A DNA stretch of 64,000 bases, taken from NCBI GenBank assembly GCA_963817235.1, contig CAWFNS010000001.1, forward strand, positions 8,595 through 72,594. Direction: 5' to 3'. Source of the stretch: an uncultured Actinomycetes bacterium. Its GTDB lineage: Bacteria > Actinomycetota > UBA4738 > HRBIN12. The position numbers and the translations under genes are program-made. Positions within the stretch are counted from its first letter, which is position 1. Each line of letters begins with the position of its first letter. The notes below the pieces were generated by a model. It did no database searches and was not told the DNA's origin. It saw only the letters and a list, made by a program, of their open reading frames with translations. Shown one piece after another: positions 7,602 through 43,401 of the stretch.

Positions 7602-9776
7602 AGAAGACGCGCGGCCTGTGGATCTCGGTGATCCTGGTCGCCGTCCTCGTGGTGGTCTCCGTCGTCGGGTTCGCGGTCGGCAGCCTGAAGCCGGTCCTCG
7701 GCCTCGACCTGGAGGGCGGCGTCTCCGTGATCCTGTCCGCGCCGGAGGGCACGCCGCGCGACGTGATGAACCAGGCGCTGGAGAACATCCGCAACCGCGT
7801 CGACGCGTTCGGCGTGGGCGAGCCCGACATCGTGCTGGCCGGCAACACGATCGAGATCCAGATCCCGGGTCTGTCCAACAGCACCGTGCAGCAGCGGAGC
7901 TCCGACGTCTACTGCATCACGGATCCGTCGGGGACCAGCTACGGCTGCTCGGCCGATCAGGCGCCGCCGAAGGAGGCGCTCGGCGGGTTCCAGGTGACCT
8001 CGGAGCCCACGAAGGTCTGCCTCGTCACCACGGATGCCGATCCACTGAAGTGCTACTCCACGGCGGCCGAGGCCGCGGCCGCGAAGGGCGGGATCACCGT
8101 GCAGCCCAAGCAGAGCGCCACGCCGACCCCGTCGGTCTCGGCCTCGGCCGTCCCGAGCGCCTCGCCGACGGCGGGTCCGCCGCCGCAGGCGTCGTCGTAC
8201 TGCCTCACCGACTTCGCCGAGAACGAACTGCACTGCTACCCGACGCAGGCGCAGGCGGAGGCCGCCCGCAAGGCGATCACCACGACGACCACCCAGACCA
8301 CCTGGTGCATCGAGCCGGCGACGCCGCCGAGCGCGACCGCGAGCGCCACGCCGACGCCGAGCGCCTCGGCCTCGTTGTCGCCGTCGGCGTCGGCCTCGCC
8401 CACGCCCGACGCGGCCGCGGCGTTCGATCAGCTGGACCGCGGTTCTGCGCAGCCCCTGCCGTGCGACTTCGCGACGAAGCAGACCGCCCAGGCCGCGCTG
8501 GACGGGTTCGCGGTGAACCACGTGACGACGCAGTACTGCGTCGTGAGCTCGCAGAACGAGGAGCTCGGCTGCTTCACGACGCAGGCCGCCGCCGCCGAGA
8601 AGCAGCGAGAGACCGGCCAGCAGCACCTGCTGGACATCATCGGGAAGACCGCGCGTCTGGAGGAACGGGCGACGATCCAGATCGTCACGCCGGCCGATCC
8701 GCAGTACGACTCGATCCAGCTGACGTGTCAGACCGCGGCCGAGCAGGCCACGAGGTCGTGCCTCGCCGCCGCGCAGGACAAGAACCCCGTCTGGTACCCG
8801 GACCAACAGAAGGACAAGGTCAACCTGGGGCCGGTCATCATCACCGGCAGCGACATCACGAAGGCCTCCGCGCAGCTGAGCAGCGACCCGAACACCGGGG
8901 TCACGCAATGGGTGGTGGCGTTCCAGCTGAACGGCACGGGCTCCGCGAAGTTCGAGCAGGCGACGCGGGCGGCCCTGAACGCGCCGCCGCCGCAGAACCA
9001 GATCGCGATCGCCGTGGACCGCACGATCATCTCGAACCCGGTCGTGAACGGCGTGATCACCGGCAACGGCGAGATCAGCGGCAACTTCACCGAGCAGGAG
9101 GCGAAGGACCTCGCCACGGTGTTGAACGCCGGCGCCCTGCCGGTGGAGCTGACGCGGCAGTCGGTGCAGACCGTGAGCCCGACCCTCGGTGCGCAGTCGC
9201 TGCGCCAGGGCATCATCGCCGGGATCGCGGGTCTGATCCTGCTGTTCGTCTACCTGCTCCTGTACTACCGCCTGCTCGGCATCGTCGCGTGGGTCGGCAT
9301 GACGATCTGGGCGATCCTCGCGCTCGCGCTCGTGTCCGTTCGCCGGCAAGAGCTTCGGCTACGCGCTGTCGCTGGCCGGCGTGGCGGGTCTGGTGATCTC
9401 CCTCGGGGTCACGGCCGACTCCTACATCGTGTTCTTCGAACGATTGAAGGACGAGGTCCGGTCGGGGCGGTCGCCGCGGACGGCGACCCAACCGGCGTTC
9501 AAGCGGGCGTTCCGCACGATCGTGGCGGCCGACACCGTCACCGGCATCGCCGCCGCGGTCCTGTACCTGACGGCCGTCAGCTCCGTCCGCGGGTTCGCGC
9601 TCACGCTGGGCGTGGCCACCCTGCTCGACCTGTTCGTCGTCTACTTCTTCAAGCGGCCGACGGTGTACCTCATCTCGCGGAACCCGAGGCTGGTCGAGAT
9701 GCCCGGCTTCGGGCTGGGCTCGGCGGCCGCGGCCGACCACGAGGCGCTCGACACCTCGGGGGAGCCGGCGTCGTGA
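7598..9776 (+). CDS. secD: protein translocase subunit SecD with a large Cys-repeat insertion (frameshift near 9340)
   Basis: LGLDLEGG, RNRVDAFGVGEP, VLNAGALP, VSPTLG, DSYIVFFERLKDE, VRGFALTL. Confidence 0.93.
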
Positions 9777-23886: not shown

Positions 23887-24969
23887 ATGGACCGACCCAC
23901 GCCGAGCACCCGATCCGAACGCCGACGGCGGGGGGTCGGCCTGGTCGCCATCTTGGTGGTCTTCTCCCTCGTGATCGGCGGCGTCGTCACGGCGGTCGGG
24001 CGCTACCGCGGGTGCAAGCAGCCGCCCGCCTCGGGGGGCTCGGTCACGCTCGAGGTGCCCTCCGGCGCAACCGGCCGCGACGTCGCCGCGGCGTTGAAGG
24101 AGCAGGGCCTGGTTCGCTGTGGCGGCTTCCTCGGCAACCTGCTGCTGCGCGGCACCGGCAAGGCGAACGCGATCTTGGCCGGGACGTACACGCTGACGGT
24201 CGGGATGCCGCTGGAGCAGATCGTCACGGTCATCACGACGCCGCCCGCGGCGGTGCCGACCGTCCGGCTCACCGTCCCCGAGGGGCTGCGGATCACCACG
24301 ACGTTCAAGGGCGAACGGAGCATCTCGAGCGAGGTCCAGGAACAGACCGGCGTCCCGGCGGCCGTGTTCTCGAAGCTCGCCGAGAGCGGCCGATACACGC
24401 TGCCGCCGTACCTGCCGAAGGGAGCCTCGACCGAGGGGTTCCTGTTCCCCGACACGTACCAGCTCGTGAAGAAGGGCCTCACGGCCGACGTCGTGATCCG
24501 CCGGATGCTCCAGCAGTTCGACACGGAGGCCGCCGCGATCGATCTGTCGGCCGGCGCGAAGCGCCTCGGCCTCACGCCGTACGAGGTGGTGATCGTCGCC
24601 TCGATGATCGAGCGCGAAGCCCAGGTGGACGAGGAACGGCCCCTCGTCGCCAGCGTGATCTACAACCGGATCGCGCAGCACATGACGCTGGGCATCGACG
24701 CGACGCTCCTGTACGACGATCCGACGCCGGACGGCAAGCTGTCGACCGCCGATCTGAAGACGGACACGCCGTACAACACGCGGATCAATGCCGGGTTGCC
24801 GCCGACGCCGATCGCGAGCCCGGGGCGCGCGTCGCTCGAGGCCGCCCTGCACCCGGCGGACACCCGATACCTCTATTACGTGCTGTGCCCGAAGGACGGC
24901 GCCGGCGTGCAGCGGTTCGCCACCACCTATGCGCAGCACCTGCGCAACGTGCAGGAATGTCTTGGTTGA
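23887..24969 (+). CDS. mltG: endolytic transglycosylase
   Basis: N-terminal TM, TVPEG, EGFLFPDTY, ASMIERE, YNR, PYNTR...GLPPTPI.SPG. Confidence 0.93.
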   Translation: MDRPTPSTRSERRRRGVGLVAILVVFSLVIGGVVTAVGRYRGCKQPPASGGSVTLEVPSGATGRDVAAALKEQGLVRCGGFLGNLLLRGTGKANAILAGTYTLTVGMPLEQIVTVITTPPAAVPTVRLTVPEGLRITTTFKGERSISSEVQEQTGVPAAVFSKLAESGRYTLPPYLPKGASTEGFLFPDTYQLVKKGLTADVVIRRMLQQFDTEAAAIDLSAGAKRLGLTPYEVVIVASMIEREAQVDEERPLVASVIYNRIAQHMTLGIDATLLYDDPTPDGKLSTADLKTDTPYNTRINAGLPPTPIASPGRASLEAALHPADTRYLYYVLCPKDGAGVQRFATTYAQHLRNVQECLG

Positions 24970-25815
24970 CGCGATCGGCCCGGCGCCGGTCTCGGGCGGC
25001 ACGCGCACGGTCGGGCATCATCGGGTGGCCGGTCGAGCACAGCCTGTCCCCGGCGATCCACAACGCGGCGTTCTCGGCCCTGGCGCTCGATTGGATCTAC
25101 GTGCCGCTGCCGGTCCCGCCGGGATCGGCGTCGGCCGCGCTCGCGGGTCTCCGCGCGCTCGGCTTCGCCGGGGCGAACGTCACGATGCCGCACAAGGATG
25201 CCGCCGCCGAGGCGATGGACCAGCTCTCCGATGACGCGCGGCGCCTGCGCGCCGTCAACACCGTGGTGCTCGGCGCCGACGGGATGACCGGACACAACAC
25301 CGACGCGCCCGGGTTCGATCGGTTCCTGCGAGCGCGACGCGGGGTTCGAACCGGCGGGCAGGACCGCGCTGCTCTTCGGCGCGGGCGGCGCGGCGCGGGC
25401 GTGCGCGCTGGCGCTCGCGCGGGCCGAGCTCGCGCGCCTGACCGTGGCGGTGCGCGAGCCGGCGCGAGCGGACGCGCTCCGCGCGGCGCTCGACGGTCTC
25501 GCGACGGCCGTCGACGTCGTGCCGATCGAGGAGGCGCCCGGCCGTCCGGCCGACCTGATCGTGAACGCCACGCCCGTCGAGGTCGTCGCGAGCCTGCCGC
25601 CGGTCGGCGAGGACACCCTCGTGATCGACGTGCGCTACGACCCGCCGGAAACCGCGTTGCACACGGCGGCGCGCGCGGCCGGCGCGACGGCGTTCGGCGG
25701 CCTCGGCATGCTGTTGCACCAGGCGGCCCTCTCGTTCGAGCTCTGGACCGGCAGGCCGGCTCCGCTGGAAGTCATGTCGGCCGCCGCGCTGGCGGCCTCC
25801 GCCGGGCGCGGCTGA
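24962..25815 (+). CDS. aroE: shikimate dehydrogenase (frameshifts near 25015 and 25330; start approximate)
   Basis: IGWPVEHSLSP.IHN, NVTMPHK, AVNTV, NTD, GAGGAARA, VNATP, GMLLHQA. Confidence 0.92.
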
Positions 25816-25836
25816 ACGCACGGCAGCGCGCGTTCC

Positions 25837-25862
25837 CTCAAGCACGTGCGGCCTCCGCCGAT
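25837..25862 (+). promoter_or_regulatory. WhiG/FliA-type promoter CTCAAG-N14-GCCGAT
   Basis: matches the sigma28-family TAAA/CTCA...GCCGA pattern, 15 nt before ATG 25878; similar motifs at 31297 and 33919. Confidence 0.7.
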
Positions 25863-25877
25863 GCCTCGGGAAGAGGA

Positions 25878-26973
25878 ATGGACGAATATGCCGCGCTCGC
25901 TCAGCGCGTCGTCCTCACCATGGACGACGTGCGAGGTTGTTTGGTGCTGTCGAGGGACGGCATGGTCCTGGGCGCCTATCCGGAGGAGGACGAGCAGGCG
26001 TTCAAGCCGGCCTGGCTGAAGTTCGTCAACGTCGGCGAGGCTCGCCGAGGCTTCGTCGAGTTCTCCGATCAGATGTGGGCCTACGTCCATCGCGGGCCGT
26101 ACGCCGCGTTCGTCGTGTCGGGCACGGCGGTGCGTCCGGGCGTCCTGCTCGATCAGCTCGAGCAGGCGGTCCTCGCCGCCGAGGAGAGCCGCGCGAAGAA
26201 GGGTGACACCCTGAAGGTCCCCGACGCGCCCGGCGCACCGTCCGGGCGGCCGCGCACCTCACTGCATCCGCCGGCGGACCGGCCACAGGTCGCGCCGGCG
26301 ACCGCCGGGACGGCGCCGCCGCCGCAGGAACGCGCATGGGCCGGGGACCAGGCGGACATCGCCGGCGCACCGCCCCAGCGTCCGCTCGCGGACGTGGGCG
26401 CGGGTGGCGGCTCCGATCGTGCCGAGCCGCCGGAGCAACTGTCGGGGTGGCGCAGGCAGGCGCTGGCCGCCGAGCAAGGGCAGCGCGCCCCCGATCCCGT
26501 CCTGCCCCCGCCCGAGCAGCGGCCCCATCCGGACGAGATCCCGCCCCCGGACGTGACGCCCGCCGAGGCCGCCCGGATGGCCGCCCGCGAGACCGAGGAC
26601 GCAACGGCCGGCGGCCGTCCGACCGCGTTCGGGTCGGAGTCCTCGCCGTTCGCTCGCCTGGAAGCCGAATCCGCCGCCGCGGCGCTCGGGAGCGCCGGTC
26701 CGGCGGCCGTCGCCCCGCCCCCCGTCGCGCCCGCGCCGATCCGCGAGGCGCCGCCGGTCGAGATCGTGGCTCCGGCATATGCGGAGGAGCCCGCCGTCGA
26801 GGTCGAGATCCGGCGCGAGCCGCATCGAGCTCGTGTCCCCCGATCGGACGATGGACGAAGGACCCGGGGGCGACGACGAGGACGAGCTCGGCGAGGTCGA
26901 CCGCGTGATGCTGGCCAAAGAGTTCTCGGGATTGCTACAGGCAGATGGGGACGGTGACGAAGAAATCACCTGA
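25878..26973 (+). CDS. Roadblock/LC7 (MglB-like) domain protein with Pro/Ala-rich linker and acidic C-terminal motif (frameshift near 26820)
   Basis: N-terminal VRGCLVLSRDGMVLG resembles the Roadblock core; AAGAGG RBS; C-terminus DELGEVDRVMLAKEFSGLL in the shifted frame. Confidence 0.6.
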
Positions 26974-27018
26974 AGACCCCAGCCAACGGCCTAGCCCGAA
27001 CGGAACCTCGAGGGCGAG

Positions 27019-28710
27019 ATGACGACGGTCAAGCGGAAGTCGAAACAGCTCGGCCAGATCCTCATCGAGCTCGGGTACATCACGCCCGAGCAACTCGAGT
27101 CTGCGCTCGAAGAACACCGCAAGACGCCGAAGTCGCTCGGCCGCGTGCTGATCGACCTGGGGATGATCAAGGAGTCGGATCTGGTCCGCGCGCTCGCGGA
27201 GCAGGTCGGGCTCGAGTTCGTCGATCTGAGCGAGTTCCCGGTCGACGCGACCGCGACCGTGCTCCTGCCGGAATCGCTCGCCCGCCGGTACCGCGCGCTG
27301 CCGATCGGCGAACGCGACGGCCGTCTCCTGGTGGCGATGTCGGATCCCGCGAACGTCTACGCGCTGGACGACATCCGCACGATCACCGGCCGCGACGTCC
27401 AGCCGGTGGTGGCGACCGCGAACGACGTCGAACACGCGATCCAGAAGTTCGCCGGCCTCGACTCGCAGGTCGAGGCGATGGCCGACATCCTCGCCGAAGT
27501 CGGGCGACACCGAGAGCACGGAGGATCTCGAGGCGGCGCTCGAGGACGCGCCGATCGTGAAGCTCGTGAACGCGATCATGACGCAGGCGGTCGGCGACCG
27601 CGCCTCGGACGTGCACCTCGAGCCGGCGGAGCGGAACGTGCGTATCCGGTTCCGCGTCGACGGCGTCCTGCACGAGCCGATGCCGCCGGCGCCGAAGAAC
27701 ATCCAGGGCGGCCTCATCAGCCGCTTGAAGGTCATGGCCGACATGAACATCGCCGAGAAGCGCGTGCCCCAGGACGGCCGGATCTCGATGAAGGTCGGCG
27801 GAACCGCGCTGGACCTGCGTGTCGCGACGCTGCCGACCGTCTACGGCGAGAAGGTCGTGATCCGCGTGTTGGACAAGTCGAACGCGCTGCTGCGGCTGGA
27901 GGACCTCGGCTTCCTCGAAGACTCGTACAAGCGGTTCTCGGTGTCCTTCAAGAAGCCGTACGGGGCGATCCTCGTCACCGGGCCGACCGGGTCGGGGAAG
28001 TCGACCACGATGTATTCGACGCTCAACATCCTGAACGAGGAGTCGAAGAACATCATCACCGTCGAGGACCCGGTCGAGTACCGGCTGGCCGGCGTCAACC
28101 AGGTCCAGGTCAACCCGAAGGCCGGGCTCACGTTCGCCTCGGCGCTCCGCTCGATCCTGCGCGCCGACCCCGACATCGTGCTGATCGGTGAGATCCGGGA
28201 CAAGGAGACGGCCACGATCGCGATCGAGGCCGCCCTCACCGGCCACCTCGTGCTGTCCTCGCTGCACACGAACGACGCCGCCTCGGCCATCACGCGCCTG
28301 GTCGAGATGGACGTCGAGACGTTCCTGGTGGCCTCCGCGATCGACGCGGTGGTCGCGCAACGGCTCGCGCGCATGCTGTGTGAGCGCTGCAAGCAAGGCT
28401 ACGCAGCCGGAGCAGGCCGAGCTCCAGGCGGCCGGCTACCCCGAATGGCTGTGGAACGAGGTGCCCGCAGCTGTGGAAGTCGCAGGGGTGCCCGGCCTGC
28501 TCGAACACCGGCTACCGGGGCCGGATCGGCCTCTACGAGGTGATGCAGATGAGCGAAGAGATCGAACGGCTCACGGTGGAGCGTTCCTCTGCCGATGCAG
28601 TCAGAGAGGTCGCCATCCAGCAGGGCATGATGACGCTCCGCGAGGACGGCCTCGAGAAGGCACGGATGGGGATCACATCATTGGACGAGGTCGCAAGGGT
28701 GGTGAAGTGA
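27019..28710 (+). CDS. pilB: type IV pilus assembly ATPase with MshEN-like N-terminus (about 3 frameshifts)
   Basis: ASDVHLEP, RVPQDGR, GPTGSGKSTT, EDPVEY, LRADPD..LIGEIRD, CxxC...CxxC Zn motif, GYRGRIG. Confidence 0.94.
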
Positions 28711-28712
28711 GG

Positions 28713-29942
<1,230 letters not shown>

Positions 29943-29956
29943 GGGGGTGAACGGGG

Positions 29957-31163
29957 ATGGCTGAAACCTACGCCTACAAGGTCCGCGACAAGGGCGGCCA
30001 CGTCGTCACGGGCACGCTCGTGGCGGACAACGAGGCCCTCGTCCTGCAGCGCCTCCGCGAGCAGGGCTACACGCCGCTCGAGGTCGGCCGGCAGAAGCGC
30101 GGGATGAACATCGAGCTGACCAAGAAGAAGGTCAAGCTCAAGGAGATCGCCGTCTTCTCGCGGCAGTTCGCGACGATGGTCAACTCCGGCCTGCCGATCC
30201 TGCGGGCCCTCGCGATCCTGTCCGAGCAGACCGAGAACAAGGAGCTCGCCCGGGTCCTCACGGTCGTTCGGGCCAGCGTCGAGCAGGGGTCGTCGCTGTC
30301 CGCCGCCCTCGCGAAGCACCCGAAGATCTTCAACGACCTCTACGTCTCGATGGTGAAGTCCGGTGAGACCGGCGGCTCGCTCGACAGCGTCCTGCTCCGG
30401 CTCGCCGACATGATCGAGACCGAGGTCAAGCTGCGCGGCAAGATCAAGGCGGCCATGACGTATCCGGTCGCGGTCGTCGCGCTGGTCAGCTTGATCCTGA
30501 CCGCGATGCTCCTGTTCGTGGTGCCGCAGTTCAAGAACATCTACGCCGGGCTCGGCGGCAGCCTGCCGCTGCCGACGCGGATGCTGATCGGCGTGTCCGA
30601 CATCTTCAAGAACTTCTGGTACATCGTGCTGATCGGGCTGATCGTCGGCCGGTTCATGTTCCGGCGCTGGCGCAAGACGCCCGCCGGCCGCGAGGCGGTC
30701 GACGGCATGAAGCTGCGCGTGCCGATCTTCGGACAGCTGTTCCACAAGAGCGCGCTCGCCCGGTTCGCCTCGACCCTGTCGATGCTGCTGCGCTCGGGCG
30801 TGCCGATCCTCCAGTCGCTCGACATCGTGAGCGACACCGTGAACAACAAGGTCATCTCGAAGGCGATCACGGACGTGCAGGCGAGCGTCCGCGACGGTGA
30901 GTCGATGGCGAAGCCGCTCGCGCGCTACCGGGTCTTCCCGCCGATGGTCGTGCAGATGCTCGCGGTCGGGTGAGGAGACCGGCCAGGTCGACGTGATGCT
31001 CGAGAAGGTGGCCACGTTCTACAACGACGAGGTCGAGGCCTCCGTGGACTCCCTGACCTCCTTGATCGAACCGCTCTTGATCGCGGTCATCGGTGGCGCC
31101 GTGGGCGCCGCGGTGGTCGCCCTCTACATGCCGATGTTCAACATCATCAAGCTGATCCAGTAG
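29957..31163 (+). CDS. pilC: type IV pilus platform protein, GspF family (frameshift near 30970)
   Basis: FSRQFATMVNSGLP, GETGGSLD, VGEETG, EPLLI, LYMPMF. Confidence 0.94.
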
Positions 31164-31187
31164 GGCTACGGTCAGGTGGGGTCTTCG

Positions 31188-31216
31188 GGGCCCGGGGCGT
31201 CACGCGCCCCGGGCCC
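31188..31216 (+). terminator. GC-rich hairpin after pilC (12-bp stem, 5-nt loop)
   Basis: GGGCCCGGGGCG / CGCCCCGGGCCC perfect inverted repeat; no long U tract. Confidence 0.6.
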
Positions 31217-31296
31217 TTCCCACGTCCGCCCTGCGGCGGAACGCGTCCGCCCTCATCGCCACCTTCCGCCTTCTCCCCTCTTCTTCCTCGGGGGAG

Positions 31297-31323
31297 CTAC
31301 AGGTGGGGGCACCTTCGACCGAA
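31297..31323 (+). promoter_or_regulatory. WhiG/FliA-type promoter CTACAG-N15-ACCGAA
   Basis: same geometry as the 25837 and 33919 motifs with mismatches, upstream of the major pilin. Confidence 0.5.
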
Positions 31324-31383
31324 ACCTCCTTGGAACGCGCACCACGGGGGTGCGCCAAGCTCCAGGAAAGGAGGCGAAGGCAG

Positions 31384-31875
31384 ATGCTCAAGGGACTCAT
31401 GAAGCGCGTCCATGAGGACGAAGGCTTCACCCTCATCGAGCTGATGGTGGTCGTTCTGATCATCGGCATCCTGATCGCCATCGCTCTGCCGACGTTCCTC
31501 GGCGCCCGGACGCGTGCGCAGAACCGTGCCGCGCAGTCGGATCTTCGCAACACGCTCGTTGCTGCGAAGACCATCTACACGGACGCCAGTTCGTACACCT
31601 GTGCCACGGGCGCGGCCGCGGTCGCTCCGTGCACGCAGAACCTGCAGAGCGTCGAGCCGTCGCTGAACTACGTGGCCGGCGCCGCAGGCAGCGTCACCAC
31701 GCAGGTGGGCGTCTCGGTGGTCTCCGCCACGCAGTGGGCGGCGGGTCGCTGGTCCGCATCGAACAACTGCTTCTACATCTCCGATGACTCGGCGGTGGGC
31801 ACGAAGTACGGCCAGGCCGCAGGCGCCTGCGTCGCGCCGACCATGGCGCTCGCAGCCGCGGCGAGCTGGAGCTAG
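31384..31875 (+). CDS. pilA: major type IV pilin 1
   Basis: class III signal EDEG|FTLIELMVVVLIIGIL with Glu5; strong AAGGAGG RBS; 4 Cys. Confidence 0.9.
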   Translation: MLKGLMKRVHEDEGFTLIELMVVVLIIGILIAIALPTFLGARTRAQNRAAQSDLRNTLVAAKTIYTDASSYTCATGAAAVAPCTQNLQSVEPSLNYVAGAAGSVTTQVGVSVVSATQWAAGRWSASNNCFYISDDSAVGTKYGQAAGACVAPTMALAAAASWS

Positions 31876-31887
31876 ACGGCGAACGCC

Positions 31888-31948
31888 CGGCTCCTTCGGG
31901 GGCCGTGGTTCACCGAGAACGAGGGGGCGGCCTTCGGGCCGCCCCTTC
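31888..31948 (+). terminator. two tandem cUUCGg hairpins between the pilin genes
   Basis: CGGCTCC-TTCG-GGGGCCG (31888-31905) and GAGGGGGCGGCC-TTCG-GGCCGCCCCTTC (31921-31948). Confidence 0.7.
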
Positions 31949-32000
31949 GCTCATCAGGCTCCGATCACCGAGCGAGGCGATGGAAGGAGGCGATGGCAGC

Positions 32001-32486
32001 ATGCTCACGGCGTTCCGGAAGCGCGTCCGGCAGGACGACGGCTTCACCCTGATCGAGCTGATGGTCGTCGTCCTGATCATCGGCATCCTCATGGCGATCG
32101 CGCTGCCGACGTTCCTCGGCGCCCGGACCCGGGCGCAGGACCGGGCGGCGCAGTCGGACCTGCGGCACGCCCTCGTCGCCGCGAAGATCCTCTTCGCGGA
32201 CGGCAGCTCCTACGCGTGCGCGACGGCTCCTCCGGCCACGGCTCCGTGCGTCCAGAACCTGAAGGACGTCGAGTCGTCCCTGACGTACCAGGCGGCCGCG
32301 GTCGGGAGCACGCCGAACCGCGTCGGCGTGGCGGTCCTGTCGACGACGCAGTGGGCCGCCGCCCGCTGGTCGACGTCGAACACCTGCTTCTACATCTCCG
32401 ACGACTCGGCGGCCGGCACCCGCTACGGGCAGGCCGCCGGCGCCTGTGCCGTTCCCGCCGCCCAGGTGGCTTCCAGCTGGTCGTAG
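32001..32486 (+). CDS. pilA: type IV pilin 2, paralog of the upstream pilin
   Basis: QDDG|FTLIELMVVVLIIG; aligns end to end with pilin 1, including all 4 Cys; AAGGAGG RBS. Confidence 0.88.
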   Translation: MLTAFRKRVRQDDGFTLIELMVVVLIIGILMAIALPTFLGARTRAQDRAAQSDLRHALVAAKILFADGSSYACATAPPATAPCVQNLKDVESSLTYQAAAVGSTPNRVGVAVLSTTQWAAARWSTSNTCFYISDDSAAGTRYGQAAGACAVPAAQVASSWS

Positions 32487-32502
32487 CGCCCGGCCGCCAT
32501 CC

Positions 32503-33825
32503 CTAGAGCGGCCACCGAGGGAGCAGCCGGAGCCCGTCCGCCCACGTGCGCGGGATCCACACCCCGGTCCACACCGGCGCGTACGCCAGCCCGACGACGA
32601 TGGTCGCGGCCGCGAACGCCATCCCCACGCCGCGGCTCCATCCTCCCGGCAGCCGACGGAGCGTGGCCGCCAGGCACAGGCACATGAACGGGACGGCGGG
32701 CAGCATGTAGAAGATGAACTGACTCCGGGAGACGAGGAGCCAGGGCAGGAACATCGCCGCGTACCCGCCGAACGCCACCGCCTCCTGCCAGCGAGGGCGC
32801 CGGAGCGCCGTGAACGCCGCGACCGGCAGCGACAGCAGGAACCCCCACCAGAGCACCGGGTTGCCGAGCGCGACGATCTTGCTGACCGACGTGCCCCGGG
32901 TCTCGGCGAAGTACTGGATCGGATGCAGCAGCAGCGGCCAGGTCCACGGGCGCGAGTTCTCCGGCTGCACCTTCAGGTGGTGCTCCTGGTACTGGAGCAT
33001 CCGGATCTGCAACGTCACGAAGTCGTGCACGGCGAACCCGTGCTGGGAGAAGAAGGCGCCGTAGCTGACGAGGTAGACCAGCAGCGGCACGACCGCCAGC
33101 GACAGCACGATCGTCGCGACCTCTCGCGCGCGCGACCGATCCCGGGGTCCGTCGCGCCGGAGGCTCCACACGGCGCACAGCAGCACCGCCAGCGCCAGCG
33201 CGTAGAAGCCCGACCACTTCGTCGCGATCGCCGCCCCGAAGGCGACGCCCGCCCACAGGCGCCACGGTGAGCCGAAGGCCCGCGTGGTCCGGGGCCACCG
33301 CGTCGCGGCGGCCCGACCGAGCCGCTCGCGGTCCAGGACGAGGAACAGGAACCCGGCGATGATGAAGGTCGACAGGAAGATGTCGAGCATCGCCAGCCGG
33401 CTCTGGACGATGTGCAGGCCGTCGAACGCGAGCAGGACCGCCGCGAAGGCCGCCCACCCAGGGGATCCCCACAGGCGCAGGGCCAGCAGGTAGAGCAGGG
33501 CGACGCCCGCGATCCCGAACAGCGCCGAGGGGAGCCGCCAGCCGAACGCGTGCAGGCCGAGCGGCCCCACCCCCAACAGCGCGATGATCCATTTCCCCAT
33601 CGGCGGGTGGATCCACGTCCCCTCGTCGTCGATCTTGACCGGCGGCGGGTTGCCGACCGGCTGGCCGAACCCGCCATGCAGGTAGACCTCCGCGTCGAAC
33701 ACGTAGTACTGCTCGTCCCAGTACAGGCTCGGCGGGGACGGCAGCGACCACAGCCGCAGGACGGCCGCCGCCAGCAGGATCAGGCACGGGAGGGCGAGCC
33801 GCCGCCAGCCTCGGTCCTCGCCCAT
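32503..33825 (-). CDS. pmt: PMT-type (GT39, GT-C fold) lipid-linked-sugar protein O-glycosyltransferase
   Basis: YWDEQYY, HPPMGKW, GWR, DGLHIVQSRLAMLDIF, ATKWSG, S.PW.WP, GNP.LWW, QFIFY.LP; many TM helices. Confidence 0.85.
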   Translation of the reverse strand: MGEDRGWRRLALPCLILLAAAVLRLWSLPSPPSLYWDEQYYVFDAEVYLHGGFGQPVGNPPPVKIDDEGTWIHPPMGKWIIALLGVGPLGLHAFGWRLPSALFGIAGVALLYLLALRLWGSPGWAAFAAVLLAFDGLHIVQSRLAMLDIFLSTFIIAGFLFLVLDRERLGRAAATRWPRTTRAFGSPWRLWAGVAFGAAIATKWSGFYALALAVLLCAVWSLRRDGPRDRSRAREVATIVLSLAVVPLLVYLVSYGAFFSQHGFAVHDFVTLQIRMLQYQEHHLKVQPENSRPWTWPLLLHPIQYFAETRGTSVSKIVALGNPVLWWGFLLSLPVAAFTALRRPRWQEAVAFGGYAAMFLPWLLVSRSQFIFYMLPAVPFMCLCLAATLRRLPGGWSRGVGMAFAAATIVVGLAYAPVWTGVWIPRTWADGLRLLPRWPL

Positions 33826-33918
33826 GGCGACATCCTGGCATGGGCGCCCGCGCCGCCTCGGAGGTCTCGCGTCCCTCGGACGCGGTCCGGCGGCCCGTCG
33901 CAGGACCTCGGTCGACCC

Positions 33919-33945
33919 CTCAAGGGGACCCCCCGGCCTGCCGAC
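33919..33945 (+). promoter_or_regulatory. WhiG/FliA-type promoter CTCAAG-N15-GCCGAC
   Basis: near-identical to the 25837 motif, ahead of the minor pilin operon. Confidence 0.7.
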
Positions 33946-33978
33946 CACTAAGTGACGGACAGTGACAGGCGGGCCCAG

Positions 33979-35337
33979 ATGACGCGCGTACTCCAACAGC
34001 TGCGTTCCGCCTCGCGCCGCTCGGGCGACGAGGCGGGCTTCACGATGGTCGAGATGATGATGGCCATCTTCATCTTCGGCCTCGTCATCACGGGCCTCGC
34101 GGTCGGCATGGCGAGCTCGCTGAACCTGACCCGCCAGAACCGGAACCGGTCGATCGCCGCGAACCTGGCGTCCCAGCAGATGGACACGGTCCGGAGCATG
34201 GACTTCGACGACCTCAACAACGTCACGCAGCAGGCGCAGCCGACCACCTCGAGCACGAGCGTCGACGGCGTCCCCTACACGCTTCTCGCAGTACACGCGG
34301 TGGGTCTACAAGAGCGAGACCGGCGCGACCCCGGGGCCGTGCCAGGCGCCGCCCAGCACCGCGAACCCGCTCGCGTACATCTCCGTCGTGACCTCGGTCA
34401 GCTGGAACGACATGCGCGGCGTGCCGCCGGTGACGTCGAGCACGGTCGTGACGCCGCCGGTCGGGATCTACGACCAGACCGACGGACACATCGCGGCGAC
34501 GGTCCTGACCCGCGACGGTGCGCCGGCCCCCGGCGTCACGGTGTCGATCGCGTCGACCGGGGTCTCCGACGCCGCCATCACCTCGAGCGACGGCTGCGCG
34601 TTCTTCGCGTTCGAGCCGATCGGGACCTACGTGGTCACCCTGTCCGGGCGCGGGCATGGTCGACGGGCAGGGGCAACGCGGCGCCGCCCCAGACGGTCAC
34701 CGTGAAGGCCGGCTCGACGAGCACCGTCCAGTTCCAGTACGACTCCGCCTCCTCGCTCGTCCTCACGCTGCAGGGGAACGGGGGCTTCTCCGTGCCGAAC
34801 GCGGTGCCGATCTCGCTCGGCAACACGCACCTGCTGCCGCTCGGCGTGATGCCGGCCACCGGCTCCGGGAACCCGCGGACGATCACCGGCCTGTTCCCGT
34901 ACGCGGACGGCTACCAGACCTGGGCGGGCGCCTGTTCCGACGCCGATCCGCAGGGCGTGAGCCCTCTGGGCAGCGCCTACTACCCGGGCGCGACCCGCTC
35001 CGCCGCGATCGTCATGACGCCGGGCCAGAGCAGCACCGGCACCGTGCAGCTGCCGGCCCTCCAGGTCACGGTCAAGAAGAGCGGCGTCTTGAAGTCGGGC
35101 TACGCGGTGACGGCGACGCACGTCGTGCCTTCGGGCGCGACGAGCGACCCGGGGTGTCCGACCGCGGAGGCGTACACGCTCGGCACGAGCAACGGGAGCG
35201 GCCTGGTCTCGATGGCGCTGCCCTACGGCACGTGGAAGATCACGGCGACGAGCGGCGCGAGCACCGGCAACGCGAACGTGACCCTCAGCCCGCTGAACGC
35301 GAACAACCCGGCCGCACTCACGGTGAACGTCTCGTGA
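33979..35337 (+). CDS. minor pilin (PilV-like) with C-terminal Ig/carboxypeptidase-regulatory-like beta domains (frameshifts near 34280 and 34645-34675)
   Basis: DEAG|FTMVEMMMAIFIFG class III signal; downstream G.P.PGVTV and T...GCAFF...GTY.V beta-sandwich-like motifs; start could be GTG 33952. Confidence 0.75.
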   Translation: MTRVLQQLRSASRRSGDEAGFTMVEMMMAIFIFGLVITGLAVGMASSLNLTRQNRNRSIAANLASQQMDTVRSMDFDDLNNVTQQAQPTTSSTSVDGVPYTLLAVHAVGLQERDRRDPGAVPGAAQHREPARVHLRRDLGQLERHARRAAGDVEHGRDAAGRDLRPDRRTHRGDGPDPRRCAGPRRHGVDRVDRGLRRRHHLERRLRVLRVRADRDLRGHPVRARAWSTGRGNAAPPQTVTVKAGSTSTVQFQYDSASSLVLTLQGNGGFSVPNAVPISLGNTHLLPLGVMPATGSGNPRTITGLFPYADGYQTWAGACSDADPQGVSPLGSAYYPGATRSAAIVMTPGQSSTGTVQLPALQVTVKKSGVLKSGYAVTATHVVPSGATSDPGCPTAEAYTLGTSNGSGLVSMALPYGTWKITATSGASTGNANVTLSPLNANNPAALTVNVS

Positions 35338-36170
35338 AGCGCCTCGCGCAGCTCTTGCATCGGGCCGACGCCCAGGACGGCGTCACGCTCGTCGAGCTCG
35401 TGGTCGTCATCTCGATCATGTCGGTGGTGCTCACGTTCGTCACCAAGACGTTCATCGTCATGGAGAACGCCTCGGCCGGCGAGAACCTCCGCCTGCAGAA
35501 CCTCGACGAGGCGCGGACGCTGATGGACGACGTGTCGAAGGACGTCCGCACGGCGGCCCGGATGACGCCGACGACCTCGCCCTTCGACGTGACGGCCTGC
35601 ACGGCGACGTCGCCGGCACAGACGCAGCCGTGCGCGCCCACCGGATGGGTCAACGGGAACGCGGCGCCGTACACCGCGAACCAGGAGATGTGGTTCTACG
35701 CGAACCTCACGCTGACCGAGAACGCCACGGCGACCGCGTGCCCCGACATCATCCACCTGTTCGTCGACACGTCCCAGACCCCGCCGATCCTTCGCGAGCA
35801 GGTGATCTCCGACGCGAACCCCGCGACCGACGCGCCACCGAACTGCGTGTACGGCACGCTCTCCGGCGGGGTCTACAGCGGCACGTACGCGACCCGGATC
35901 GTCGGCAAGTACATCGCGAACGCGACCACGAACTGCCCGTCGAGCAGCCAGGTCTTCACGTACTGGTACGACGACGCGAACGGGGTCCCGACCGCGTTCC
36001 TGGCCACGGACACGCCGCTGGATGCCGGTGAGCGGATCCAGGTGAACGCGGTCGGCATCGCGTTCTCGGTGCGCCAGCAGACGAACTACACGGTGCCCTG
36101 CACGACGCTCGTCAACCGCGTCCGGCTGGCGAACGTCGAATACAACCCGATCCCGAGCCCGAGCCCATGA
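35334..36170 (+). CDS. minor pilin (PilW-like)
   Basis: AQDG|VTLVELVVVISIM with Glu5; DVSKDVRTA helix; GTGA overlap with the previous gene. Confidence 0.8.
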   Translation: MKRLAQLLHRADAQDGVTLVELVVVISIMSVVLTFVTKTFIVMENASAGENLRLQNLDEARTLMDDVSKDVRTAARMTPTTSPFDVTACTATSPAQTQPCAPTGWVNGNAAPYTANQEMWFYANLTLTENATATACPDIIHLFVDTSQTPPILREQVISDANPATDAPPNCVYGTLSGGVYSGTYATRIVGKYIANATTNCPSSSQVFTYWYDDANGVPTAFLATDTPLDAGERIQVNAVGIAFSVRQQTNYTVPCTTLVNRVRLANVEYNPIPSPSP

Positions 36171-37953
36171 CCGCGCCATCCCTGCACCGGCTGCACCGGC
36201 GACTTCGCGCCGACGGCGAGGAGGGCGTCGCCCTCATCACGGTGCTGCTCGTCACGTTCGTGCTGCTGATCCTCGTGGCCAGCACGATGGCCTACGCGAT
36301 CGGCTCGATGCCGATCTCGCGCCGCGACCAGGACTGGAACGCGGCGCTCACGGCGGCCGAAGCCGGCCTGGACGACTACCTGTACCGCCTGAACCAGAAC
36401 GACCAGTACTACCTCTACGGACAGCACCCGCCGCCCGCCACGGGCACCTGCGGCGCCTACCCGACGCTGGCGGCGCCGCCCGGACGGCAACCCCGCCTTC
36501 ATCGAGCTGGGTGCCGGTCCCCGGCTCCTCGACGGGCGCCACGTTCCGCTACAGCGTGGACACGTCCTGCCTGGTGACCCAGGGCGCGATCGTCGTGTGG
36601 GCGACCGGGAAGTCCGGGACCTCGACGCGGACCGTCCAGGCCACGTTCCGCCGGCGCTCGTTCATCGACTACCTGTACTTCACCGACTACGAGACGACCG
36701 ATCCCGCGGCCTATCCGGTGGGGTCCTTCAACTCGAACAACTCGGCCTGGGCCCAGGCCAACTGCGCGCAGCACTGGTACGAGGGCCGGCCCGGCGGGCC
36801 CCCCTACGACAACAGCCACTGCGTCGACATCAACTTCTCCTCGGGCGACGTGATCAACGGCCCGTTGCACTCGAACGACGCGATCCTCGTCTGCGGGAAC
36901 CCCACGTTCAACGGCAACGTGACCACGAGCTGGCAGGGAGCCGGGACGCCCGTGAAGCGGTACCGCACGAACTCCGGCTGCTCGAACAACAACCCGACGT
37001 TCGCCCGGGCGGGGGACCCGAAGTACGCCGACCCGCTCACGATGCCGCCGAGCAACCTGTCGATGAAGTCGAGCGCGGACGCGACCCTGGCCGGCGCCGG
37101 CTGCCTGTTCACCGGGCCGACCTCGATCACGCTGAACTCGACCGGCACGATGACGGTCGTGAGCCCGTTCACGAAGTGGCCGGCGGCCCCGAACAACTGC
37201 CAGCCGGGCACGAACATCCCGCTCCCGTCCAACGGCGTGATCTACGTCCAGAACGTCCCGGCCTCCTCGAGCGATCCGAACTACACCGCGAGCTGCATCA
37301 CCTCCACGCAGCTCGGCGGGACCGCGACGGTCCAGCACCCGCTCGGGTACCCGCAGAAGTACGACATCTCGCAGTACGGGTGCATGAACGGCGACGTCTT
37401 CCTGAAGGGCACGCTGAAGGGACGGCTGTCGATCGCGGCCGACAACAACATCGACATCATCGGCAACGTGACGTACCAGGGCGGCACGGGCGGCAGCGAC
37501 CTGCTCGGCCTGGTGGCGAACAACTACGTCGAGATCTACCACCCGGTCGGCGACTGTGGCTCCGGGAGCGCACCGTGCGACAACGGGAGCAAGAACAACG
37601 GGTACTACAACCTCGACGACGTCGCCGGCGGCCTGACGACCTCCTTCAACAACCCCACGATCCAGGCGGCGATGCTGTCGGTGAGCCACTCGTTCCGGGT
37701 GCAGAACTACCAGTACGGAGACGACACGCCGCTCGGGACGATCACCGCCTACGGCGCGATCGCGCAGAAGTACCGCGGCACGGTCGGCACGAGCGGGTCG
37801 TCCGGGTACACGAAGAGCTACTCCTACGACCAGCGCATGAAGTACCAGTCGCCGCCGTACTTCCTGAACCCCGTCGCGGCGGCGTGGCAGATCGTCACGT
37901 GGATCGAGTGCAAGGGATCGAGCTCCGGCAGCGTCCCCACGACGTGCCAGTGA
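36167..37953 (+). CDS. large PilX/GspK-like minor pilin (frameshift near 36480-36505)
   Basis: EEG|VALITVLLV lacking Glu5, A..AAEAGL motif of the PilX N-terminus; ~590 aa with a Cys/Gly/Asn/Thr-rich C-terminal region. Confidence 0.8.
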
Positions 37954-42252: not shown

Positions 42253-43401
42253 ATGCTGCGCCTGCTGACCGCCGGGGAATCGCACGGCAGGGGATTGGCG
42301 GCGGTGCTGGAGGGACTCCCCGCGGACGTTCCGATCACGGCGGACGCGATCGCGCACGAGCTCGCCCGCCGGCGGCAGGGGTACGGCCGCGGCGGCCGGC
42401 AGAAGATCGAGGCGGACAGCTTCGAGATCCTGGCGGGGGTGCGCCACGGGCGCACGCTGGGCTCGCCGGTCGCCGTGACGATCGGCAACGTCGAGTTCGA
42501 GCAGAAGTACCGGACGCTGATGAGCGCCGAGGGTGAGGTCGACCCCGCGGCCCGGCTGACCCGCCCGCGTCCCGGCCACGCGGACCTGGTCGGTGCGCAG
42601 AAGTACGGCTTCGACGACGTGCGCAACGTCCTGGAGCGGGCGAGCGCCCGGGAGACCGCCGCCCGCGTCGCCGCCGGCGCGTTCTGCAAGGCGTTCCTCG
42701 GGGGGCTCGGGATCGAGGTCCTGTCCCACGTGGTGCGGATCGGGAAGGTCAGAGCGCCGGCGCGGATCCCGACGCCGGCCGACCGCCCGGCCGTCGACCG
42801 CTCGCCCGTACGATGCGCGGACGACGAGGCGTCCCGCGCGATGGTCGCCGAGATCGACCGGGTCCGGAAGGCGAAGGACACCCTCGGCGGCGTGTTCGAG
42901 GTCCTGGCCTACGGCCTGCCGCCGGGGCTCGGCTCCTACGTGCACTGGGACCGCAAGCTGGACGCGCGTCTCGCCGCGGCGTTGATGTCGATCCAGTCGG
43001 TCAAAGGCGTGGAGGTGGGGGACGGGTTCGCGTCGGCCGCGCGCGTGGGGTCGAAGGCCCACGACGAGATCGTGCTGCGCGGCGGGCGGCTGGCTCGCTC
43101 GTCGGCGCGGGCGGGCGGGATCGAGGGCGGGATGTCGACGGGGCAGCCGATCCGGCTGCGCGCGGCGATGAAGCCGTTCTCGACCGTGCCGAAGCCGCTG
43201 CGGACCGTCGACCTGCGCACGCGGGAGCCGGCGGTGGCCATCAAGCAGCGGACGGACGTCTGCGCCGTCCCCGCGGGCGGCGTCGTCGGGGAGGCGGTCG
43301 TCGCGTTCGTGCTGGCCGACGCCGTGCTCGAGAAGTTCGGCGGCGATTCGCTGCCCGAGACGCGGGGCAACCTGGATCGCTACCTCGAGGGGCTCGGGTG
43401 A
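42253..43401 (+). CDS. aroC: chorismate synthase
   Basis: [44 protein letters not shown]. Confidence 0.97.

Follow-up and report, generated by a model that had tools for sequence, protein, structure and literature searches.

Control of type IV pili by WhiG, a sigma factor of the sigma-28 family, has already been published for Rubrobacter and Actinoplanes. The pil cluster of Rubrobacter has WhiG-type promoters (TAAA / GCCGATAA) mapped at three transcription units, and others precede genes of diguanylate cyclases and phosphodiesterases (Schumacher et al. 2021, PMC8325347). In Actinoplanes missouriensis, a FliA-family sigma controls the type IV pili and flagella of zoospores, with the consensus CTCA-N16-17-GCCGAACT (as cited in Denis et al. 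2026, doi 10.64898/2026.01.14.699351). The preprint of Denis et al. surveyed 673 reference and representative genomes and gives the WhiG search patterns T(A/C)AA-N16-GCCGA and CTCA-N16-17-GCCGA; it names pilus targets only in Cellulomonadaceae, Cryptosporangiaceae, Sanguibacteraceae, Rubrobacteraceae and Jonesiaceae, plus Actinoplanes, and mentions neither uncultured lineages nor Roadblock proteins. Here we describe the pil cluster of an uncultured soil actinomycete, within a 64,000-nt stretch of its genome (GCA_963817235.1, contig CAWFNS010000001.1, positions 8,595 to 72,594; hereafter the window, C1:8595-72594), where a WhiG-type promoter very probably precedes a Roadblock-domain gene, pilA and the minor-pilin operon, and possibly pilB.

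We propose that RNA polymerase with the single WhiG of this organism would recognize a two-part promoter made of a -35 box c-T-y-m-A-G (usually CTCAAG or CTTCAG), a spacer of 15 nt (14 at one site) and a -10 box r-C-C-G-A-t/a-g/a. The same promoter type would head ~20-30 other units, and pilus production would thereby be switched jointly with cyclic di-GMP (c-di-GMP) turnover and sensory genes. WhiG would most likely be restrained by an anti-sigma factor homologous to RsiG.

As in Rubrobacter radiotolerans and R. xylanophilus, sigma-28-type promoters are predicted at about three pil units, with further sites before GGDEF/EAL genes, and WhiG and RsiG are both encoded by an apparently non-flagellated organism (no flagellin gene was found here). 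Unlike Rubrobacter, where the TAAA / GCCGATAA promoters have mapped starts, the promoters here are predicted from sequence and have CTCAAG or CTWCAG as -35 box, and a Roadblock-domain gene heads the cluster. Rubrobacter RsiG is a homodimer with a single, canonical motif, whereas the homologue here has the twin-helix architecture and deviates in both motifs, and its WhiG partner has Ser at the position of Gly61. With Actinoplanes, the locus shares a -35 CTCA and a -10 GCCGA, at equal spacing, before pil genes; there, however, sigmas of the WhiG1 type are tied to a flagellar cluster and RsiG is lacking, while here the sigma resembles Streptomyces WhiG and is accompanied by an RsiG homologue. The sporulation switch WhiG-RsiG of Streptomyces venezuelae (PDB 6PFJ) is matched by an orthologous sigma (~65% identity) and a twin-helix RsiG, but its targets are whiH and whiI rather than pilus and signalling genes, and the residues that contact c-di-GMP deviate here. 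New, then, is the lineage: WhiG control of type IV pili and of coupled c-di-GMP enzymes is extended to uncultured soil Actinomycetota, and current understanding of the switch itself is unaffected by the findings.

Two-part promoter motifs at the pil cluster

Four sites at the cluster, P1 to P4, carry the motif (Table 1). A sequence-only reading of the window had located three of them, before a Roadblock-pilBTC unit, pilA and the minor pilins, and had likened them to sigma-28/WhiG promoters. All three are indeed read where it had placed them, and they recur before the same units in relatives. P1, P3 and P4 are intergenic, lie 12-58 nt from start codons and point at the gene; P2, the fourth, overlaps the end of the preceding open reading frame (ORF). 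The likeness to the consensus is borne out in the -10 box: CGA stands in that of all four sites (GCCGATGC, GACGAAGA, ACCGAAAC and GCCGACCA, for P1 to P4) and of every equivalent site in the relatives. With respect to the -35 box, the published queries are matched by P1 (as CTCA-N16) and P4 (as both CTCA-N17 and TCAA-N16), though not by P2 and P3. We scored sites with a position matrix covering 7 nt around the -35 and 9 nt around the -10 with a spacer of 14-16 nt, trained on 35 sites from relatives' loci only, upstream of orthologues of the Roadblock gene and of pilA. With this matrix P1 scored 20.4 (rank 6 in the genome) and P3 scored 15.6. The Roadblock gene is the strongest and most conserved predicted WhiG target of the cluster, which agrees with its proposed place in the regulon. 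A scan for sigma-70-type promoters before the pil units gave none.

The boxes are conserved far beyond the window. A PilC-based search for related loci returned 80, the closest public records being metagenome-assembled genomes (MAGs) from soil; ~17 of them, with PilC identities of 58-99%, share the gene order aroE, Roadblock gene, pilB, pilT, pilC, pilA. Every one of these syntenic loci has yTCAAG-N15-nnCGATG before the Roadblock gene and CTyMAG-N15-rCCGAnA before pilA. Between pairs of loci, the -35 boxes are 0.73-0.96 identical and the -10 boxes ~0.75, versus 0.30-0.39 for spacers and 0.28-0.37 for flanks, the latter two being the background for such base composition. For single sites, box identity (-35 and -10) was 0.92 and 0.76 at the equivalents of P1 (16 relatives; spacer and flanks 0.30-0.36), 0.73 and 0.74 at those of P3 (17 relatives; spacer and flanks ~0.3), and 0.96 and 0.76 at those of P4 (15 relatives; scores 15-22.5). 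P2 has equivalents in 16 relatives, scoring 14.5-18 and lying 29-61 nt before pilB; like those of P4, they were outside the training set. In a near-identical MAG locus, L006, whose record suggests a short-read assembly, boxes and spacer lengths are the same as in the window and P1 is identical; the N14 spacer of P1 is therefore not an indel error of the assembly. Matrix scores of 18-23 were found before pilA in distant loci as well (Kineosporia babensis, Nocardioides litoris and several MAGs of Acidimicrobiia), indicating that the arrangement is widespread and supporting an old wiring.

We also asked how far the motif exceeds chance in the genome, which comprises 2.99 Mb in 13 contigs at 71% GC. 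Over the genome as a whole, the bare pattern CTCA-N16-17-GCCGA shows no enrichment (105 occurrences versus ~100 expected from half-site frequencies). Since this whole-genome count is uninformative, it was replaced by a scan of 2,235 upstream regions (343 kb, sense orientation) with column-permuted matrices as control. Scores of at least 13 were reached by 41 upstream regions (mean with permuted matrices, 5.5), at least 15 by 31 (mean 2.1, maximum 8; 1 in reversed sequence) and at least 20 by 5 (mean 0.1; 0 in reversed sequence), far above background, as the earlier reading had implied. The top six matches in the genome are all intergenic, as are 14 of the 22 scoring at least 18. Owing to frameshifts in the assembly, our own rough gene calls cover just 77% of the genome; the intergenic class is thus too large and the enrichment estimate is conservative.

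Chance matches in a GC-rich genome might have been suspected from the bare-pattern count and from several matches of at least 14 inside genes. This reading is, however, already contradicted, and we regard its probability as negligible: enrichment in upstream regions is ~15-fold; scrambled matrices put the chance of one upstream region reaching 13 at ~0.0025, yet three or four regions in one 8-kb cluster do so; and the boxes are conserved while the spacers have diverged. Conservation by itself cannot tell a promoter from an operator, and the motif could instead be the site of a repressor or activator. We consider this very improbable, because the two boxes are unlike each other and keep a constant orientation to the gene (at scores of at least 15, 31 matches were sense and 14 antisense), the spacing is fixed at 15 nt with the boxes 4-60 nt before start codons, and the boxes match a known sigma consensus where no other promoter was detected.

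Elsewhere in the window, matches of at least 14 occur at 1449 and 28569 and, on the minus strand, at 7661, 42607, 56639 and 60503; those at 42607 and 60503 fall within called genes in the genome-wide context table. None was seen directly before a housekeeping gene, in keeping with the sequence-only reading. We discounted the match at 28569, which lies inside pilB, together with recurrent ones in pilM of relatives, reading them as conserved coding sequence.

The sigma factor WhiG and its predicted partner RsiG

Exactly one protein of the genome exceeds the cut-off of the FliA/WhiG family TIGR02479 (267 bits; cut-off 189.6), as the reading of the motifs as sigma-28 promoters had called for. It aligns with S. 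venezuelae WhiG (6PFJ_A) at 308 bits over 270 residues, versus 163 bits with E. coli FliA. In a tree that contained no authentic WhiG1 reference sequence, it groups with S. venezuelae WhiG and a WhiG-like sigma of Kineosporia babensis (L225) with support 82/94, and a divergent Kineosporia paralogue falls outside. The gene was found in 38 of 41 relatives. It lies in the neighbourhood comM-dprA-xerC-whiG-M23 peptidase ... rpsB-tsf, which we take to be that of Streptomyces whiG as well. The genome, 76% complete, gave no match to Flagellin_N.

A homologue of RsiG, the other gene predicted, is also present. With the twin-motif RsiG of Kineosporia babensis as query (found by a back-translated pattern and confirmed against PDB RsiG chains), homologues were obtained in 38 of the 41 genomes searched in total. 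The one in this genome matches S. venezuelae RsiG (6PFJ_T) over its full length, residues 25-174, with E = 1.4e-11, and weakly matches Rubrobacter RsiG (7LQ2-4). It co-occurs with WhiG and without a flagellin match, as in the WhiG2 clade. In region 4 of the sigma, the positions that contact RsiG in WhiG (T235, L236, Y239, E240, L242) are T, L, F, E and L: four are identical and the change of Tyr to Phe is conservative.

We infer that WhiG is the factor reading the sites from the consensus, the co-occurrence of motif and sigma gene, and the analogy with described systems; positions of transcription start are likewise predictions. The sites could, alternatively, be true promoters of another alternative sigma, for example one of two SigB/SigF-like group-3 sigmas or an extracytoplasmic function (ECF) sigma. 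Two further proteins give sub-threshold matches to TIGR02479 (~108 bits), the -35 box differs from the classical TAAA, and it is sequence, not experiment, that ties the sites to WhiG. Nevertheless, the -10 core GCCGA with its invariant CGA is, in the literature, the hallmark of sigma-28/WhiG promoters, the same motif stands before pilA in Kineosporia and Nocardioides, both of which have a WhiG-type sigma, and the target classes match published WhiG regulons. Recognition by a different sigma therefore appears improbable, and WhiG remains much the best candidate.

Several observations count against WhiG-type promoters at all four sites, or against their control by c-di-GMP. Just 12 nt separate the end of P1 from the start codon, so that the leader would be very short. 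P2 and P3, with CTACAG, miss the exact -35 of the published queries; CTTCAG and GTCAAG variants in relatives share the register of this box. P4 and P2 are weak in the window genome, scoring just 13.2 and 13.0, the low score of P4 being due to a C at position 7 of the -10. The -35 box of P2 sits in a conserved C-terminal coding motif (..KEFxxLLQ..) of the Roadblock protein, with a 5' flank that is 0.72 identical; its conservation may thus reflect the protein, and P2 is a candidate only. The genome is incomplete and its assembly frameshifted. In WhiG, the positions of the c-di-GMP contacts Lys57, Gly61 and Arg62 are K, S and R, and so Gly61 is not conserved. In RsiG, motif 1 is R-EYL-S-LL-R-RLL-Q-GRA-E, with R for the first E (Glu is at neighbouring positions) and E for D, and motif 2 is E-HGV-S-ED-R-RAV-I-DVL-D, with Ile for Gln. 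Separately, the bases of P2 may double as coding sequence and promoter.

Changes in both proteins recur among relatives. Ser occupies the position of Gly61 across the whole genus and in most of the order, with a few families keeping Gly, whereas S. venezuelae, Rubrobacter, Kineosporia and Nocardioides WhiG retain it; according to Denis et al. (2026), a residue with any side chain here would clash with c-di-GMP. The Gln of RsiG motif 2 is replaced by Ile, Leu, Met or Phe order-wide. The homologue hence does not carry two canonical copies of E(X)3S(X)2R(X)3Q(X)3D, and strict and relaxed regular-expression searches for this motif found nothing in coding frames, a false negative caused by the deviating motifs. 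Both motifs retain the guanine-reading Arg, and motif 2 retains Asp; these residues confer guanine specificity according to the structural paper, which makes binding of c-di-GMP plausible but not assured.

We lean slightly towards c-di-GMP still arming RsiG in this lineage. It is also possible, though rather doubtful, that the WhiG-RsiG pair of the order has left the canonical switch, such that sequestration of WhiG by RsiG would need no c-di-GMP, have a changed affinity or involve another ligand, while WhiG still drives the pili, the Roadblock protein and a GGDEF-EAL enzyme; Ser at the ribose-packing Gly61, the loss of the stacking Gln from motif 2 and the shifted Glu of motif 1 suggest as much. 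Of the control by WhiG and RsiG that the sequence-only reading had borrowed from Rubrobacter, both genes thus proved to be present, and the link to c-di-GMP became less certain.

The wider predicted regulon

Outside the pil cluster, high-scoring sites precede genes of a GAF-PAS-GGDEF-EAL protein, a PilT-like ATPase, a Flp-type pilin, CheA and other proteins (Table 1). In the genus, 24 of 25 orthologues of the GGDEF-EAL gene have the site in the same position, at protein identities down to 52%; the best sites score 11.2-19.1, and 17 exceed 14. Only 4-10 nt separate its -10 box from the start codon in ~24 genomes (orthologues L175-L198), which suggests that the mRNA is leaderless. For the PilT paralogue, all 16 orthologues examined carry the site. 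Pili, c-di-GMP enzymes, chemotaxis and regulators are also the target classes known from Rubrobacter WhiG and those predicted phylum-wide by Denis et al. (2026).

A regulon of a dedicated sigma, including the Roadblock gene, had been anticipated from the three motifs. Our data agree with a WhiG-type regulon that includes this gene, though not with one confined to pili, as c-di-GMP turnover, CheA and sensor kinases are among the predicted targets, alongside PilT paralogues. The lineage-specific matrix and the list of ~30 units can be used for annotating related MAGs.

Genes of the cluster and minor features

Pfam assigns the order around the sites as alaS-ruvX, mltG, aroE, an unassigned ORF, pilB, pilT, pilC, pilA, minor pilins with PilX, pilD and pilM.

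Table 1. Positions of predicted promoters, genes and other elements (plain numbers, window; C numbers, contigs of the genome).
Feature	Position	Strand	Description and basis
Predicted promoter P1, before Roadblock-domain gene	25836..25865	+	-35 CTCAAG 25837-25842; 14-nt spacer; -10 GCCGATGC 25857-25864 (GCCGAT 25857-25862); ATG at 25878 begins 15 nt on
Candidate promoter P2, before pilB	26934..26964	+	GCTACAG-N15-GACGAAGAA; pilB ATG (27019) 54 nt downstream
Predicted promoter P3, before pilA	31296..31326	+	-35 CTACAG 31297-31302; 15-nt spacer; -10 ACCGAAAC 31318-31325 (ACCGAA 31318-31323); pilA ATG (31384) ~60 nt downstream
Predicted promoter P4, before minor-pilin operon	33918..33948	+	-35 CTCAAG 33919-33924; 15-nt spacer; -10 GCCGACCA 33940-33947 (GCCGAC 33940-33945); minor-pilin ATG (33979) ~33 nt downstream
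Roadblock-domain gene	25878..26960	+	~360-aa protein; translation, AlphaFold2, Foldseek
pilB (MshEN + T2SSE), pilT, pilC (T2SSF)	27019..31163	+	Pfam
Stem-loop GCGCACC-ACGGG-GGTGCGC	31337..31355	+	Predicted pilA 5' leader; starts 11 nt after the -10 box
pilA, major type IV pilin	31384..31875	+	Pfam N_methyl motif, E = 2.8e-7
Minor pilin / PilX-like genes	33979..36577	+	Pfam N_methyl, PilX_N
whiG	C2:517808-518710	+	TIGR02479
RsiG homologue	C9:83417-83917	-	Similarity to 6PFJ_T
GAF-PAS-GGDEF-EAL protein	C4:39622-41889		Pfam; gene behind high-scoring site
PilT-like ATPase	C6:454372		Pfam; gene behind high-scoring site
Flp-type pilin	C1:367529		Below Pfam cut-off; behind high-scoring site
CheA	C8:6693		Pfam; behind high-scoring site
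Receiver domain protein	C5:105272		Pfam; behind high-scoring site
Four GAF/PAS histidine kinases			Pfam; behind high-scoring sites
MoxR, DUF1800, DUF3072, cupredoxin			Pfam; behind high-scoring sites

The first gene encodes an N-terminal Roadblock/LC7 region (~105 aa), a long Pro/Ala-rich region and the conserved C-terminal motif mentioned above. Pfam gave no match to the Roadblock domain (Robl_LC7) in it. An AlphaFold2 model of the N-terminal 110 residues (pLDDT 86.5), with the elements H-E-E-H-E-E-E-H of an alpha-beta-beta-alpha-beta-beta-beta fold, found Roadblock/LC7 proteins 3KYE and 7F8M, MglC 7CT3 and MglB as best PDB matches by Foldseek, and the top 50 PDB matches were mostly Roadblock, MglB, MglC and LAMTOR (TM 0.6-0.69). 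The model thus confirms a Roadblock/LC7 (MglB-like) fold, in line with the name Roadblock that the sequence-only reading had given the gene. This gene may not form one unit with pilBTC, as first thought, in view of the possible fourth site before pilB; the promoter before the Roadblock gene stands.

In the window, aroE (24788-25815), pilB (27019-29942) and pilC (29957-31163) are split across reading frames. L006 aligns at 95.7% identity, with 13 gap openings over 5.7 kb, and has each of the three genes as one uninterrupted ORF (283, 562 and 401 aa). Judged from this alignment, the frameshifts are probably indels of the assembly rather than signs of pseudogenes; such indels may also account for the completeness estimate of 76%, and they leave the promoters unaffected.

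The predicted 5' leader of pilA contains a stem-loop, close to the predicted 5' end of the mRNA. Across 16 loci, 96.4% of its cells are paired, two pairs show compensatory changes in 6-7 sequences, and the covariation score was reached by 0 of 500 shuffles. No Rfam family matched in 25700-34200, the stem-loop included. It may be a 5'-terminal stabilizer or a regulatory hairpin.

A 440-aa gene lies on the minus strand (32503-33825) between the pilA region and the minor-pilin operon. In relatives, the promoter before the minor pilins is mostly 600-1100 nt past the start of pilA. Among the matches in pilM, GTTCCAG-N14-CCCGATGCC recurs ~300 nt into the gene in eight relatives' loci (L008, L010-L014, L021, L024), with scores of 13-17.5; it is absent from the window at scores of at least 12. 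Either coding conservation or a promoter within pilM that serves pilN/O could account for it.

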